A DNA stretch of 64,000 bases from a virus (IMGVR_UViG_2868569063_000004:58875-122874), one strand, 5' to 3'. Shown: positions 3,945 to 52,155, numbered from the stretch's first letter. Program-made: numbers and translations. The notes: generated from the letters alone by a model not told the origin.

Positions 3945-4040
3945 CTCTATATCTCCCTTTCATAATATGCAGAATTTAAAGAATCTCGCAAACGCGCCTG
4001 TAGAGCGCATTTGCGGAAACTGAGGTCTATTTTGATAGCG

Positions 4041-4919
4041 TTACATATGCCTTTTTTCTCTATGTTTAGCGACTCTTTGACGAGTTTTTTCTAAATCAAT
4101 AATATTTTGGCATTCAGAACAAAGCGTAGAACGATTATTCTTGGACATTGTAAAAAATTCTTTGCCACAACAATCACACGTAATAAGTTTTGTTTCATCT
4201 TTAGCATTTTTACTCTGGCAGTCGGTACAATAAGGATTCCTTGCTTTGGAACTTTTCACCTTGTACGGCTTCCCGCAGCGTTTACACAGCTTTATCTTAG
4301 ACTTCGGACCCAAGTTCTGATATTGATAGCCCAATTCACGCATATCTGTAATTTTAAGTACCGGATCAGACTCATTATCAACAAATGTGATTCTTATATT
4401 GAAGCGAGTTATCTTCTTGCTCACTTCAACCAAACCAACTTCTTTTAAGTCGTAGATCATATGTGGACGATCATCCACTTTACAGGCAACTCTGGCGAGC
4501 TTAAACCACATTTCCATAGGATAGTTGATCCAATTATTGTTAGTTTCAGATTTCAAATTATTGAACTTTGCAATGACCAAGAGTGTGAACACAAGTCTTT
4601 CCCTGGCGGGGTTTTTGATTTCCTTGATAGTATCTAACTCTTTCTGCGTAATAGGTATATAGTCAATGTTCAACAGGTCTCTTTTTTTGGCTTTACTGAT
4701 ACATTTATCTATAAATGAATACCAAGCATTAATATCAAATTCTGGTACGACTTTTGATACAAATTCTTCTATATTATTATATATTTCTTTCTGTGTATAC
4801 TTTTCCTGATACATATATCTTGTTAGAAGCGCTATGACTGAACCTAAGTCTTTAGGATTAAATTCACCTAGCTCTAACATCCTTTCAACATATTCTTTCT
4901 CATTGAGTATTAAATCCAT
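4041..4919 (-). CDS. Hypothetical protein with two C-terminal Cys4 zinc fingers
   Basis: ATG 4919 after GGAG; CKRC/CTDC and CDCC/CSEC; overlaps the RNAP stop. Confidence 0.75.
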   Translation of the reverse strand: MDLILNEKEYVERMLELGEFNPKDLGSVIALLTRYMYQEKYTQKEIYNNIEEFVSKVVPEFDINAWYSFIDKCISKAKKRDLLNIDYIPITQKELDTIKEIKNPARERLVFTLLVIAKFNNLKSETNNNWINYPMEMWFKLARVACKVDDRPHMIYDLKEVGLVEVSKKITRFNIRITFVDNESDPVLKITDMRELGYQYQNLGPKSKIKLCKRCGKPYKVKSSKARNPYCTDCQSKNAKDETKLITCDCCGKEFFTMSKNNRSTLCSECQNIIDLEKTRQRVAKHREKRHM

Positions 4920-5992
4920 TCTCTTTCTCCTTCCATGTAAACTTTTTTCATAGTAAAATGTTCTCCGCAATATTCTATATCCCCAGATGGATCCTTTACT
5001 GGTATTTGAGCATATCCTTCAGTACGTGAGAGAAGATTTTTGATAATAGTATCTCCTGACATTTCCCAGATAAAAGATTTTCCTTTTTTAGAACTGTATC
5101 CTAAATCAACAAGGATATTGCAGAGTTTCTCTGGATCAGATACATATTCAGCGCATTCAATTTTAAATGCTTTATTATATGAAGCAGAAAAAGCATCTGT
5201 TTTTGTGGTACAGGATCTGTTCATTTGTTTATTGAATTTATCATATATGCGTTCTATAAGTACTTTATCCTTATTTGTGTAGGTGGCATCTGACTTCAGA
5301 ATAGAACTGTCAAACGGTACCTTACTTTCTTTTACATCAGCCAGTGTTTTCTCAATTTCCCAACAGAGTTCATTGACTACACAGGTTTCTGCATTGACTG
5401 GATAGAATTCTTTATAGAATTTGAGAAACTCTGCCTGTTCTTCAGTCAACTCTTGTGATGACAGCAGCTCTTCCAGTGGGATGTTAAACCTGGACCTGCT
5501 CACGGCGTCTGATGTTTTGATGTAGTCTTTGTATTCCTTCATGAGAGTAGGGTAGTTGTAGATGAAGAAATATGGCTTCTTATCTGCACAAATTCTCTGA
5601 TTGAATTCCTTCTTAGTTATTTCTTCTGGTGTATCTGTTTCTTCTATACGGTTGTAGCTATTGTCATACCAATGTTTTGGCATAGGTTTAGCGATGATTC
5701 CTTTAGCTTTATCAATAGAGTTCTGTTGGAACAGCTGCCCACACAATATCCTGTAGTCTAAGACTTTATATTCCTCACTGTCTTTCGGGAACCTTGCCTG
5801 TAAGCATATCTGTGAAGTGATAACATTAGTAATAGGACCAATCGCATCACCGAAAGAACCTTTATTAGCTTGTATCATATCTGTTTCAGTCGGAACTACC
5901 TTGTTTCCTTTACGTTGGATGCAATAGATTGGCGGTAGGTTTTCTGTATGTTTTAATAAGATAGTATTGTTAGTAGTAAACATTAAGTCTCC
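4910..5992 (-). CDS. yonO: YonO-like single-subunit RNA polymerase, exon 2
   Basis: Starts GGA GAC (GD), completing DCDGD; IGPITN, QNSIDKAKG, KKPYFF motifs of the YonO/RdRP-like family. Confidence 0.9.
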   Translation of the reverse strand, partial: GDLMFTTNNTILLKHTENLPPIYCIQRKGNKVVPTETDMIQANKGSFGDAIGPITNVITSQICLQARFPKDSEEYKVLDYRILCGQLFQQNSIDKAKGIIAKPMPKHWYDNSYNRIEETDTPEEITKKEFNQRICADKKPYFFIYNYPTLMKEYKDYIKTSDAVSRSRFNIPLEELLSSQELTEEQAEFLKFYKEFYPVNAETCVVNELCWEIEKTLADVKESKVPFDSSILKSDATYTNKDKVLIERIYDKFNKQMNRSCTTKTDAFSASYNKAFKIECAEYVSDPEKLCNILVDLGYSSKKGKSFIWEMSGDTIIKNLLSRTEGYAQIPVKDPSGDIEYCGEHFTMKKVYMEGEREWI

Positions 5993-6985
5993 CGACTTAA
6001 CACCTTATGTTTCCATAAGGACTAGACTATATCTTCATCTGTAGCTCTATCACCAAGATACAGATGCTCGGCACTTCCCCTGCGAGGATTCCACTCACAA
6101 GGTACTCTACTTGCTTCTTTACTTAAGTATTTCTCTTAAGCTATGCTTTCGATAGTCGTTAAACTTTTCTCATTATTGAGACTTAGCACAGTATTGTCTT
6201 TGGAAAAATAGTATGTGTGTTTATATATGTTACCTGTTTCTATATAATATGGGATTCTTCCTGCTAGACCTGCCGGAGATGAAGAAGAGTGCAGTTGTTT
6301 CAACACATATTCTGCGCATAACTGCATGTATGGAAAAGTTGCTATTACATTTTTGTCTTTATCTAACAAACATACTGGAATAGCTCTTCCATTCTGTCCT
6401 CCGGGACGAGATTGTTTTTCTTTTGAATATGCAGGATCAGCTTTGTACTTCTGACTGAGTGTGGTGTTTCCGTAGTTGGGATTTTTCTTGCCACTATAAT
6501 CTAACGTCTGCGAAGCATGTCTGCCAGCAGCGAGAGTATAGTCAATATTTTCTTTATGTGAACACCATTCTAAGTTATCTACACTGTTGTTTGTGCGATT
6601 GTAATCTTTATGATTTACTTCCGGTAAATTTAAAGGATTAGGGATAAATGCTTTTGCTACTAATCTATGAACACTGGCAACTGTTCTGTTTCCTGTTTTA
6701 CCGACAGTAATACACATGTACCCATCTGAATTCATACGTTGTTTTATTTCCTGATGATATTTCGCTCTACCACGATTATGAGTACTAAATATTTTTCCAT
6801 CTTCACGAACTATGTAATCAATACCTTTTACATTTAAAATTCTTTCTTCTATTGTTCTCACCTTCTTTTTTATAATCTATTTTTCCAATAAGAGTTCCAC
6901 TGTTAGCCCGGTACTTCCGGACACCTTACATTTGTAAGTTCACCGAGTTTTACATATACATCGCTGTATAAGGTGACAGAGTTTT
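5993..6985 (-). mobile_element. Group I intron (993 nt)
   Basis: Exon ends in U, paired U.G in P1 (GUGAU/GUCAC); R element AACGACUAUC; S element AAGAUAUAGUCU; P9 CCUUAUG-GAAA-CAUAAGG; terminal G at 5993; removal restores frame and catalytic motif. Confidence 0.93.
6136..6861 (-). CDS. Intron-encoded HNH homing endonuclease
   Basis: VHRLVAKAFIPNP...VNHKDYNRTNN...NLEWCSHKEN; the ORF tail runs into the intron core. Confidence 0.92.
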   Translation of the reverse strand: MRTIEERILNVKGIDYIVREDGKIFSTHNRGRAKYHQEIKQRMNSDGYMCITVGKTGNRTVASVHRLVAKAFIPNPLNLPEVNHKDYNRTNNSVDNLEWCSHKENIDYTLAAGRHASQTLDYSGKKNPNYGNTTLSQKYKADPAYSKEKQSRPGGQNGRAIPVCLLDKDKNVIATFPYMQLCAEYVLKQLHSSSSPAGLAGRIPYYIETGNIYKHTYYFSKDNTVLSLNNEKSLTTIESIA

Positions 6986-8632
6986 ATCACAATCAGCTCC
7001 ATTAAGAGCTTCTTTAGTACTATCCCATGAGTTTAACAACATACATGTGTTTATATATCTATACCAATAAGTCATATCAGGAGTCCCTACTATCTTAAGC
7101 TTACGCACATTGTATTTGCTTGTCATAGGTGCTCTGAAGCAGCAGACCTCGCTGACTCCTCGATCAAGCCAATGTTTATGCCAGCATTCCCCAGCGTGGA
7201 GTAATCCTGTGACCGGTAAACCAAAGATACTCTGCATCAAGCTATACGGATCCCCTCCAATGATGGCAAAGTTACCCCTCACTTTGAGTACACCAATCTT
7301 GGCCTGTCTGATTTTTTTCTTTATCATATTGTAGATTCTGTCTCTGATGTAAGGATCATGAATCATCTGTGGCTCAATCATGAGAGCATTGATATACGGT
7401 TCTTCATCAATATAGGAATCTTCTGTAAGATTTGTTCCTCTCAGAAATAGGAGTGACTTCCTGTAATCTAATCCAAGGATTTCTTGAATTTCTTCTACTG
7501 TAGGACGGACCAATTCAGTTACTTCTTCCGGTGTAAGGTGGTAATTCTGCAGGAACTGGTAATTTGTGCTTCTGTACTCATCAAGTCTTGCAGGAGCAGT
7601 CTTGGCTATAGATATTTGATAATGATATTTTTCTATATTGGACCAGTAATCTTCGAAAGAAGAGTAGGAATCCCATAATTTAAGCATAGAAGTAGTAATA
7701 ATCAGTTCAGACTCTCTGATATCTCTCATATCTCCCCAGGCATCTTTTATATAGAAGTTTTTCGCTATAGATTCCCCAAAAGCTAAGTAATCCATTGTGA
7801 AAACCATGCCCTTTGTCCATGGAAGTCCTCTGAGATTACAGCCAGATAAAAAATCTTCTTCTTCGTCAAGCTCTCTTGCCCAACGGTAAGAGAGTGATGG
7901 AAGCATGATTCCGTAACCGTCTGATTCCATAAGCTCTATTTCTTGATCCTTGAGGAACTCTACTATTGGTTCATCAGACTGAGAGTCATCTACACGAATA
8001 ATGTCTTCTGTGAAATGAGTAATGCAGTCAGGAACGACTATGATCCCTTTTGGCATACTTACTGGAATACTACCGGAACAGATCAGTGCCTGGTACGCTT
8101 CAAGTTTAGCTGGCACAAATTTTTGTTCTAGGTTCCTACCGCAACAGAGACGCTCATAGAGCTGGGGATATAGCCTTTCAGAGACATAAACAATAGTAGA
8201 ATTCTTTATGCCCCCGTTGGTGCCTAGGAGTCTGTGATATTTTATTCCATTGATAGAAAAGCCTTTATTGGCTCTGTTATAATCAGACATTTTATCAATG
8301 ATCAGACACATGTAATCTGGAACAAATTGAAGATTATAGAATCTTTTATAGAGATTTGCTATGAGAGTATCTTTCTTAGAAGAATCAGATTTTTTGAGAC
8401 GCTTGATTTCTTTCTTTATATAAGAAGCTTCTTCTTCTCTGGCTTCACTGGTGTCTCCGTTGAGTTCATCAATGAATCTGAGAATCTGGCTATCAGACAG
8501 AGAAATAATGTCTTCTGTGTTTAGAGCTTCCTCTAATGGATATTCTAGCTTCCAGCGTGATCTGCGAAGACGTTCACTGTGGAGCTTGAATAAGTATCTT
8601 TTACATTTTTTCTGCTTTGCTATTGTAATCAT
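6986..8632 (-). CDS. yonO: YonO-like single-subunit RNA polymerase, exon 1 (spliced product ~909 aa)
   Basis: PAKLEAYQAL.CS, SDGYG, KGM, NYQFLQ, FRAP and LNGADCD at the exon end. Confidence 0.9.
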
Positions 8633-11320: not shown

Positions 11321-11370
11321 ATTATAGCACTGGCTACGAAAAATGTCAACAGAATTTTACAAACTTGTTT
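11321..11370 (-). promoter_or_regulatory. Sigma-A promoter with upstream AAACAAGTTTGTAAAA box
   Basis: TTGACA(11349-11344)-17-TATAAT(11326-11321); box at 11355-11370. Confidence 0.88.
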
Positions 11371-50103: not shown

Positions 50104-50175
50104 AGGGTAGTGGCCAAGCGGTAAGGCACAGCACTTTGACTGCTGCATTCATGGGTTCGAATCCCATCTACCCCG
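50104..50175 (+). tRNA. tRNA-Gln(TTG)
   Basis: Cloverleaf; CAGCA-CTTTGAC-TGCTG; GGTTCGAATCC. Confidence 0.9.
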
Positions 50176-50580
50176 TAGTTCTAAGTTAGCTCTGAAGGCC
50201 AAAGAGGTAACCGATAGAGCTAAGGTATACCTACTTATGTTCATGGCGGACATAGATAAAACTTAAGTGAAAATTTGGATGGTTTAATAACTGGAACCTG
50301 TTCAAAAAAGGGAACACAGTACATTGGTAGCAATGGTTTGGATGTACGAAACATTTATATAGATGTGCTTTGTGCTAATGAGGAAGTGGAGTGGAGAGGA
50401 CTGTACAAGTATGGTACGTGTAGTTAGTATGAAGCAAAAAGTAATTGCGTTAGCGAGGGTGATGGAAAGAGAGAAGGTCTGAGAATGATGACGATCATTC
50501 ATGTAGCTGACATGATTACAAATCAATCATTATAGTTGTTACGTTTTTATATGTGGGTGTTTTCAAAGTTCACCCACTAT

Positions 50581-50654
50581 GGAAACTTAGCTCAGTTGGT
50601 TAGAGCAACCGGCTCATAACCGGTCGGTCCTGGGTTCGAATCCCAGAGTTTCCA
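50581..50654 (+). tRNA. tRNA with CAT anticodon, probably Ile2 rather than initiator Met
   Basis: ACCGG-CTCATAA-CCGGT; paired 1:72; lacks the initiator GGG/CCC anticodon stem. Confidence 0.85.
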
Positions 50655-50878
50655 TTTCTCCTGACGAAGGAGTGACTTTTGAGAGCTCTAATTTTCAATA
50701 GTAAAGAGCCGTTGCTGATTTGGTAGTGAGAATCAGATGGCGCTGGAAAGACAGATAGTTTTTGAGATGTTTTGTAATGAGACAAACATTCAGCTTTAGA
50801 GAAAATGTAGGGAATTGAGCTGATCAAAGAACACATAATCCTGTTGTGACTGCAGCACGACAGGTCATGCATGAAAAG

Positions 50879-50951
50879 TGATAAGTAGCTCAGTTGGGAG
50901 AAAGAGCGCACTACAAAAGTGAGGTCGGTGGTTCGAGTCCACTCTTATCAC
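50879..50951 (+). ncRNA. tRNA-like element with truncated anticodon arm
   Basis: TGATAAG/CTTATCA acceptor, GCTC/GAGC D stem, GGTGG-TTCGAGT-CCACT T arm; anticodon arm only CAC-TACAAAA-GTG. Confidence 0.7.
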
Positions 50952-50992
50952 AGGCAATTAAATTAAAGTTTAAAATTCAGGAGGTATTTATC

Positions 50993-51631
50993 ATGACAAC
51001 AGAAAAAATGAATGTACACAAAGCATTAGCGGAACTGAAGATCTTAGATGATCGTATTGTAAAAGCAATTAACAGTGTAGAAGCTTGTATTTCAAATAAG
51101 CATTCTAACACAAAAGTCAAAGGTGTAGATATCAAAGTTTACACAGGGGTTATGAAATCTTCTTATGATAAAGCAACTGATTTAATCAAGAGAAGAGAAG
51201 CTATTAAAAGAGCTGTAGTTCTTTCAAATGCAGTAACTAAAGTCACTGTTGCTGATAAAGAGTATACAGTAGCTGAAGCTATTGAAATGAAAAATCATGG
51301 AATGGACTTCAAGAAACTTTTAAAACAGAAAATTAAAAAACAGTATGATGCTGCTATGGCTCAGATCATAACTGAGAATGGTAAATTGGAAGATAAAGCT
51401 GAAAATTATGTTGTAGGGCTCTATGGTAGCAAAGAAGGTAAAACCTCTACTGAAGAGTTTACAAAAACTAGAGAAGCCTATATAGAAGCTCAGACAATGG
51501 AACTTGTTGATCCAATTGGTGTTCTTAAAGAAATGGAGGATTTAGAAACAGAAATTGCAGAGTTCACTGCTGAAGTAGATGCGGCACTTTCAGTAAGTAA
51601 TTCTCTGACAGAAATAGAAATTACATACTAA
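50993..51631 (+). CDS. Coiled-coil protein, DIP1984/DUF6847-like
   Basis: ATG 50993 after AGGAGG; M.V..AL.ELK.L..RI...TVAEAI...VD.ALS.SN..T.I. Confidence 0.75.
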   Translation: MTTEKMNVHKALAELKILDDRIVKAINSVEACISNKHSNTKVKGVDIKVYTGVMKSSYDKATDLIKRREAIKRAVVLSNAVTKVTVADKEYTVAEAIEMKNHGMDFKKLLKQKIKKQYDAAMAQIITENGKLEDKAENYVVGLYGSKEGKTSTEEFTKTREAYIEAQTMELVDPIGVLKEMEDLETEIAEFTAEVDAALSVSNSLTEIEITY

Positions 51632-51635
51632 GATA

Positions 51636-52015
51636 TATTCACTGCTTATCGAAAACTTTAAACTATAATCTATATGTCTTTTTAGCTGGGTTAGACATAT
51701 ATAAAACAATAAAGAAACCACAGCATTACTTATACAGTAGATAATAGTATAAAATACAAAATGGATTAGGATTACGTGGTCGTATAGGACCTGTAAGCTT
51801 AATATATTATATTATTGGATGAGGCAGATAGCCATAGTACTGTAAAGTTCAAAGATTAAAACTCAAATCTTAAAATTCAAAATTCAAAGTTTATCCCAGT
51901 TTAAAGATTAAAGAATAAAGCATAAAGAATAAAGATTTATCAAATCCTTGGTAAAAGTTTATGAGCATGATTATACTTGGCTCTTAGTTTGTACAAGGCT
52001 GGTAAGTAGTGAATA
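51636..52015 (+). ncRNA. Candidate ~380-nt structured RNA with heptamer repeats
   Basis: 15-bp closing stem with two G.U pairs; 12 YAAA-initiated 7-mers at 51843-51936; no ORF. Confidence 0.68.
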
Positions 52016-52073
52016 AGTAAATATAATAGTCGCTTTCATTATTAACAATTGGCAGTTGAACTGCCAGTTGTAC

Positions 52074-52155
52074 CCACCCATGGTGGAATTGGCAGACACG
52101 TTAGATTTAGGTTCTAATGCTTAATAGCGTGAGAGTTCGAGTCTCTCTGGGTGGA
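52074..52155 (+). tRNA. tRNA-Leu(TAG)
   Basis: CCACCCA/TGGGTGG; TTAGA-TTTAGGT-TCTAA; long variable arm. Confidence 0.92.

Follow-up and report, generated by a model that had tools for sequence, protein, structure and literature searches.

What divides a viral RNA polymerase gene in two at its catalytic motif? The stretch of DNA analyzed here (the window; 64,000 nucleotides, IMGVR_UViG_2868569063_000004:58875-122874) is part of a 122,874-base IMG/VR provirus record whose source is a gut prophage. One open reading frame (ORF) on its minus strand, 6950-8632(-), terminates ...NGADCDKTLSPYTAMYM, and another, 4910-5983(-), opens MFTTNN. We conclude with high confidence that the sequence dividing the two coding parts, 6985-5993(-), is a mobile, self-splicing-type, IA2-like group I intron that splits the DxDGD motif of a YonO-type polymerase gene. 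Within the Mg-binding D-x-D-G-D, the insertion separates the codon for the second Asp from that for the Gly. When 5993-6985 is removed in silico, a single open frame of 909 amino acids (aa) results (8632-6986 joined to 5992-4910) with the junction NGADCD/GDLMF, where the slash marks the splice junction here and below. A preliminary description of the locus had joined the two ORFs as LNGADCD/GDLMF, and the rebuilt DCDGD bears it out. The junction aligns column by column with the uninterrupted polymerases of PMBT24 (NGCDFD/GDAIY) and YonO (DND/GDKAL).

The strongest support comes from nature, where the same boundaries are found. We compared 19 IMG/VR contigs with a DNA identity of 94-99.6% in exon 1. 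Twelve carry the same 993-nt intron (98.2-99.9% identity), followed by an exon 2 that is only ~88% identical to that of the window. Five contigs (L011, L012, L018, L023, and L025) are intron-less, and their exons abut exactly at the predicted splice sites. The remaining two are L024, where this site is occupied by a different intron of 991 nt, and a contig that is truncated. At ~50% identity, about 60 of 73 homologues have an uninterrupted, contiguous DxDGD at this position, a comparison on which the preliminary description had been ready to abandon the intron.

The RNA between the splice sites has the parts of a group I ribozyme, which were mapped by hand from sequence anchors and covariation (Table 1). 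The U.G pair in P1, the P7 strands GACUA and UAGUC, the GAAA loop of P9, the terminal G, and the HNH gene, all named in the preliminary description, are present, and its assignment to group I is upheld by these core elements, by covariation in P1, P3, and P4, and by the exact boundaries of the intron-less alleles. P6, P8, and P9 fold locally. The P7.1 and P7.2 hairpins lie between the P7 5′ strand and the P3 3′ strand, which places the intron in subgroup IA, and this module is 80-88% similar to sequences of many other phages. Across 17 related introns, pairing holds for 116 of 119 pairs in P3 and 98 of 102 in P4, with several compensatory pair types per variable position (none of 2000 partner shuffles does as well). 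The core segments AACGACUA and GAUAUAGUC are conserved in related introns, and the terminal G is present in all same-site relatives. The guide changes in step with the codon for residue x of DxD: GUGAU pairs with GUCAC in the window, AAGGAU with GUCCUU in L024, UUCGAU with GUCGAA in L109, and GGAU with GUCC in Clostridium phage c-st, and the guide of L074 covaries too. Comparison with related introns also led us to reject two other helix assignments, CUCGGUG with UACCGGG as P4 (the strand before P8 fixes P3) and ACAGUG with UACUGU as P6 (the Q-like element CAAUxCUGUGCyAAG fixes P4).

In the Rfam consensus, J3/4 and P4 come straight after P3. The window's intron has two extra hairpins at this place (6925-6938 and 6907-6921), both of which covary in relatives, with a conserved GGUGU between them. 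A pattern search for the layout P3-hairpin-GGUGU-stem-CUAAC gave 82 matches in other viral contigs, 29 of which have a group I core downstream; because so loose a pattern is expected to match by chance, this count shows that the layout recurs and not how frequent it is. The layout thus appears to be that of a recurrent intron subclass that is not tied to the polymerase gene.

The identity of the interrupted gene was examined at the levels of sequence and fold. BLASTP aligns exon 1 with YonO (E 1e-25, 27% identity over ~400 residues, YonO residues 131-494), tblastn with exon 1 also matches yonO genes of the SPbeta group, and the polymerase matches phrog_8308 (E 3.8e-67). In an alignment of 57 uninterrupted homologues, R500, A501, P502, D547, D549, and D551 are invariant; the R-x-P and Asp triad positions define the two-barrel polymerases (PMC2919709). 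A sequence search with exon 1 against PDB gave no match, whereas a fold search did. An AlphaFold2 model made from the natural intron-less allele L011 (mean predicted local distance difference test score [pLDDT], 89.3; predicted template modeling score [pTM], 0.83) was matched by Foldseek to the eukaryotic RDR2 and QDE-1 (E 1e-15 to 1e-12, template modeling [TM] score 0.38-0.49) and to two-barrel polymerases of phages, namely gp62 of P74 and gp64 of P32 (E 1e-4) and the RNA polymerase of crAss-like phi14:2 (E 3.6e-4). The BLASTP alignment, the invariant residues, and the modeled fold support the conclusion, already reached in the preliminary description, that the gene encodes a YonO-type single-chain two-barrel RNA polymerase. 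For YonO, and for YonO only, DNA-dependent RNA synthesis and late phage gene transcription have been demonstrated; its Asp triad is catalytic, and replacing all three Asp residues by Asn inactivates the enzyme (PMC5467207). The region as a whole had no megablast match in the phage collection, and relatives had to be sought at the protein level. Among GTDB genomes, a scan for close relatives yielded no host genome. In one uninterrupted homologue, that of BUCT082 (L005), DFDYD stands in place of DxDGD, which may be variation in the catalytic loop or a shifted alignment.

The P5 loop of the intron holds an HNH endonuclease gene with an HNH_3 domain (PF13392, E 7e-8) and a match to phrog_59 (E 1.8e-34). 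The ORF aligns with I-HmuI (PDB 1U3E, E 2e-7), including the positions of the HNH His and Asn. The DNA polymerase intron of SPO1 has I-HmuI as its nicking enzyme. Both exons and the HNH gene are open in all 12 carriers, and 234-241 of 242 positions of the HNH gene (241 residues and the stop) are identical. That the frames have stayed open argues that the gene is still used and, therefore, that the intron is removed from the RNA.

The exon sequences next to the intron differ between alleles in a way that suggests how the intron spreads. Nine flanking variants, at −10, −7, and −4 and from +6 to +42, are shared by all 13 intron-bearing alleles. Most of them are synonymous, and the −4 variant (U, not C) is the base that completes P1. 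By eye, five of the nine occur in none of the intron-less alleles of the junction listing; the other four are +42, which lies outside this listing, and those of the +28-30 codon, one base of which is matched in a single intron-less contig. To the left of the intron, the shared tract ends between −10 and −19 or beyond −19, and to the right at +42/+55, +72/+75, +81/+108, or beyond +108; at least four right-hand and at least two left-hand end points are thus seen. Judged from the sequences of the alleles, this flank pattern is what homing driven by an endonuclease, with co-conversion, classically leaves behind. The similarity to I-HmuI and the co-conversion tracts give HNH-driven homing indirect support.

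Several observations weigh against our interpretation. A search with the Infernal group I model, which the preliminary description had proposed, gave a mixed answer. RF00028 matches at 6003-6418(-) with 43.3 bits (E 2.6e-9) in a local 1.6-kb search and with 41.8 bits in the whole provirus record, and the match is far beyond chance: five near-identical phages are without exactly these 993 bases. The score is, however, below the gathering score of 50, so that a whole-window Rfam scan at the gathering threshold lists no intron, and the extra hairpins and the 668 nt inserted in P5 make the model misalign the 5′ half. The same-site intron of c-st scores only 20.4 bits, and a pooled Rfam E-value scan of seven related loci found no intron, because the Rfam model copes badly with this intron subclass. 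The last ~75 nt of the HNH gene double as P5′, P4′, P6, J6/7, the P7 5′ strand, and the first bases of P7.1, and therefore translation and ribozyme folding compete. The start codon of the HNH gene is uncertain as well: the listed GTG lies inside the Shine-Dalgarno-like GAAGGUGA, and, as we read the alignment with the ORF of L109, translation may begin near an AUA codon. Finally, one ancient insertion and ordinary recombination could give the flank pattern without ongoing homing.

This last point is the core of the alternative that survives best, in which the intron is spliced but is a fixed, immobile passenger whose flank pattern goes back to one old insertion and later recombination, with an HNH gene that no longer promotes homing. 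Co-conversion-like tracts alone do not separate repeated homing from recombination after insertion, and the same-site introns without an ORF in c-st and CB473P3 show that endonuclease loss does happen. We nevertheless regard this alternative as unlikely, given an intron that is nearly identical across backgrounds with a divergent exon 2, an HNH gene that is intact in 12 of 12 carriers with catalytic residues that align with those of I-HmuI, and the several tract end points on either side.

It is less probable still that the element is decayed or does not splice and that the polymerase is made as two separately translated polypeptides, an N-terminal part that runs to the intron stop and a C-terminal part that starts at Met 5983. 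Split polymerase subunits are known in jumbo phages (PMC2919709), the halves are handled as separate proteins by GenBank and PHROGs, and a Shine-Dalgarno-like GGGAG that spans the 3′ splice site (window 5983-6000) stands four bases before the ATG at 5983. Yet Gly-Asp-Leu is encoded upstream of Met 5983, so the third Asp would be in neither fragment: unspliced RNA could give only an N-terminal fragment ending ...DCDKTLSPYTAMYM, the truncated enzyme foreseen in the preliminary description, and a C-terminal fragment started at Met 5983 could contain no third Asp. All three Asp residues are invariant in the 57 homologues, and the YonO mutant that has lost them is inactive (PMC5467207). Moreover, the ribozyme helices are all intact and covarying, the boundaries restore the frame exactly, and the intron-less alleles are contiguous. 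That the interruption is an intein or the insertion of a free-standing endonuclease gene is next to impossible, even though inteins too are generally known to target the catalytic motifs of polymerases: group I core elements are present, versions of 317-433 nt without an ORF occupy the same site, there is no continuous host-intein-host frame because the frame closes 14 codons after the junction, and the intein reading is thus ruled out by stop codons and RNA structure.

The group I intron of the window belongs to a larger set in the same gene family. Introns at the same site were found in three named phages and in several metagenomic contigs, some with NUMOD4 and HNH domains and others with little or no coding sequence (Table 1). 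In L024, whose exon 1 is 94% identical to that of the window, the intron (L024:1753-2743) has a 242-aa ORF with an AntA/AntB domain and no recognizable endonuclease domain, and it resembles the window's intron only in its 3′ 144 nt (78%). The polymerase genes of PMBT24 and BUCT082 are uninterrupted throughout, and that of CB457P2 is uninterrupted at the DxDGD site. The polymerase gene has a second hotspot for introns in the invariant motif QQNxID/KxKG (D643/K644, L011 numbering), 94 codons downstream of the first, and this is occupied in at least 10 of the 73 metagenomic loci and in three Enterocloster phages; the gene in the window is uninterrupted there. Introns at the second site have a core architecture like that of the first, and their ORFs are mostly of the GIY-YIG/NUMOD3 type, versus NUMOD4 and HNH at the first site. 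A related HNH-bearing intron in L078 (L078:6571-7588) sits 6 nt upstream of the first site, between the first Asp and residue x (D/KDGD). Because its guide, GUCG(CC), and its target, ...CGAU, are similar to those of introns at the second site, this placement may represent transposition to an ectopic CGAU site. Elsewhere in the provirus record, outside the window, there is a second, weak match to RF00028 (17 bits; G000:C1:40253-40432 (-), L010).

We conclude that an intron in DxDGD is an ordinary, unannotated habit of this polymerase gene family. Public annotation lists the polymerase halves as separate hypothetical proteins in c-st (L001, CST179/178/177), CB457P1, CB473P3, and CB457P2. Similarly, phrog_25339 (558 positions) matches exon 1 end to end and phrog_35857 (354 positions) matches exon 2, and these two families look like the products of unrecognized introns. 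The finding corrects the annotation of split polymerase genes. It also offers a natural system in which homing and co-conversion can be studied, with intron-bearing and intron-less alleles whose exon 1 is 98-99% identical and which co-occur in gut metagenomes.

The polymerase gene is part of a leftward operon in the order Bro-N gene, 288-aa ORF, polymerase exon 1, intron, exon 2, and 309-aa gene. The 309-aa gene ends in tandem CxxC zinc-ribbon motifs that are similar to the C terminus of YonO (E 5e-4). Its equivalents follow and overlap the polymerase gene in PMBT24, BUCT082, and c-st as well, where CST177 is annotated as "YonO-homolog (C-ter only)." In these phages, the tail that YonO carries as a fusion seems to have a gene of its own. 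Elsewhere in the window are a RAGATH-27 RNA (91 bits; 51638-51725 (+)) and four tRNA genes (50104-52155 (+)).

We propose the following course of events. Given the consensus promoter at the head of the operon, it is probably the host RNA polymerase that makes the precursor RNA, transcribing leftward from 11349. The intron would fold into P1 (GUGAU with GUCAC, including the U.G pair), a P3-P8 core, and a G-binding site in P7. An external guanosine would attack after U6986, P10 (CUCU with GGAG) would align exon 2, and the terminal G at 5993 would be displaced. The ligated message, TGTGAT/GGAGAC, would encode the 909-aa enzyme with the complete triad D547/D549/D551. Encoded in the P5 loop, the HNH enzyme presumably nicks, close to the insertion site, the intron-less alleles of co-infecting phages, and repair from the intron-bearing genome would copy the intron together with ~10-100 bp of flanking exon. 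It is reasonable to infer that genes that depend on the phage polymerase must wait for splicing. A more far-reaching proposal, which we consider speculative and rather doubtful as a whole, is that the HNH enzyme may serve as an inter-phage weapon against the triad codons of rivals, that splicing may act as a delay or checkpoint between early transcription driven by the host and later transcription driven by the phage polymerase, and that the extra hairpins may mark a structurally distinct, widespread subclass of phage group I introns.

Table 1. Features of the interrupted polymerase gene and its operon in the window, and related introns in other phages and contigs
Feature	Coordinates or source	Strand	Remarks
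Group I intron, 993 nt, IA2-like	5993..6985	-	P7.1/P7.2 present; terminal G at 5993
Exon 1, YonO-type RNA polymerase gene	6986..8632	-	549 codons; last codons GAT TGT GAT = Asp-Cys-Asp
Exon 2	4910..5992	-	360 codons + stop; first codons GGA GAC = Gly + third Asp of triad
I-HmuI-like HNH endonuclease gene, in P5 loop	6136..6861	-	241 aa as listed, GTG start
P1 5′ strand GUGAU (last 5 exon bases)	6986..6990	-	U at 6986 in U.G pair at 5′ splice site
Internal guide sequence	6973..6981	-	GUCAC (6973-6977) pairs with exon 1 end = P1
P10	6978-6981 and 5989-5992	-	guide CUCU pairs with exon 2 GGAG
P2 hairpin, GCGA loop	6954..6971	-	
P3 5′ strand CUCGGUG	6941..6947	-	covariation across 17 introns
Two extra hairpins (6925-6938, 6907-6921)	6907..6938	-	between P3 5′ strand and J3/4
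P4 5′ strand ACAGUG	6898..6903	-	J3/4 CUAAC just before
P5 5′ strand	6878..6888	-	perfect 11 bp with 6200-6210; closes loop holding HNH gene
P5 3′ strand (6200-6210), J5/4 CAAU, P4 3′ strand UACUGU (6188-6193)	6188..6210	-	
P6 hairpin	6168..6181	-	
P7 5′ strand GACUA	6153..6157	-	J6/7 ...UUUAAC just before
P7.1 (6122-6140) and P7.2 (6077-6102) hairpins	6077..6140	-	subgroup IA hallmark
P3 3′ strand UGCCGAG	6067..6073	-	
P8 hairpin	6037..6065	-	
J8/7 GAAGAUA and P7 3′ strand UAGUC (6025-6029)	6025..6036	-	
P9 hairpin, GAAA loop	6003..6020	-	
Sigma-70-type promoter, perfect (12 of 12, extended −10)	11321..11349	-	head of leftward operon with polymerase gene
Downstream 309-aa gene	4041..4970	-	overlaps polymerase stop by 61 nt
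Strong intrinsic-terminator-like hairpin	3987..4015	-	closes leftward operon
Same-site intron	Clostridium phage c-st		317 nt; no ORF; halves annotated "YonO-homolog N-ter only / C-ter only"
Same-site intron	Enterocloster phage CB457P1		531 nt; only a 35-codon ORF
Same-site intron	Enterocloster phage CB473P3		433 nt; no ORF noted (without ORF scan)
Same-site intron	fecal contig MT835481		948 nt; NUMOD4 + HNH
Same-site intron	L074		1007 nt; NUMOD4 + HNH
Same-site intron	L109		901 nt; NUMOD4 + HNH
Introns at second site	L003:2558-3062, L006:3060-3531, L007:2073-3204		
Gaps at second site	L037, L049, L051, L077, L079, L080, L082, L074, L109		

Phage introns of the IA2 type are known from the DNA polymerase genes of SPO1 and SP82 (I-HmuI/I-HmuII), from td, nrdB, and nrdD of T4, from Twort, and from bnrdE/F of SPbeta. 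The intron in the window shares with these introns the P7.1/P7.2 module, an endonuclease of the HNH nicking type, insertion into a catalytic motif of an essential enzyme that acts on nucleic acids, and co-conversion of the flanks. It differs from them in having an RNA polymerase as host gene, an HNH gene in the P5 loop, and two extra covarying hairpins. The interrupted gene itself is most readily compared with yonO of the SPbeta prophage of Bacillus, which likewise encodes a single-chain two-barrel RNA polymerase with a conserved Asp triad (Forrest et al. 2017, PMC5467207). In contrast to the intron-split gene described here, yonO is uninterrupted; its product has 839 aa rather than 909 and carries at its C terminus the zinc ribbon that is here encoded by a separate downstream gene. 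In the library searched, no paper contains both YonO and group I introns, and the PMBT24 paper does not mention introns.

Introns in phage RNA polymerase genes have precedents. In phage 201phi2-1, a mobile intron lies between gp273 and gp274, which belong to a beta-like subunit (cited in PMC2919709); there too, a mobile intron divides the gene for a subunit of a phage RNA polymerase, although the enzyme is the multisubunit one of a jumbo phage and the site is a different one. The closest published case is the gp210 intron of PhiPA3, a group I intron that carries an HNH gene and interrupts gp211/gp209, the gene for a beta-like subunit of the virion RNA polymerase; its enzyme nicks the intron-less gene of the rival PhiKZ (Birkholz et al., Science 2024, PMC11620839). 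In both PhiPA3 and the window, a group I intron with an I-HmuI-like HNH gene sits right after conserved aspartates of a phage RNA polymerase gene. The PhiPA3 intron interrupts the beta (RpoB-like) subunit of a multisubunit enzyme in a jumbo phage of Pseudomonas, whereas the one described here splits the beta-prime-type, Mg-binding DxDGD triad of a single-chain YonO-type enzyme in a gut Clostridia-type prophage. For PhiPA3 there are measurements of nuclease activity and of competition, both of which we only infer here. The intron in the window is real and is a polymerase intron of an already known type; it brings no new mechanism, and its value lies in annotation and in the natural homing system. 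What it adds to the PhiPA3 precedent, that of a nuclease aimed at a rival's polymerase gene, is an extension to single-chain YonO-type enzymes and to the Mg-binding triad.

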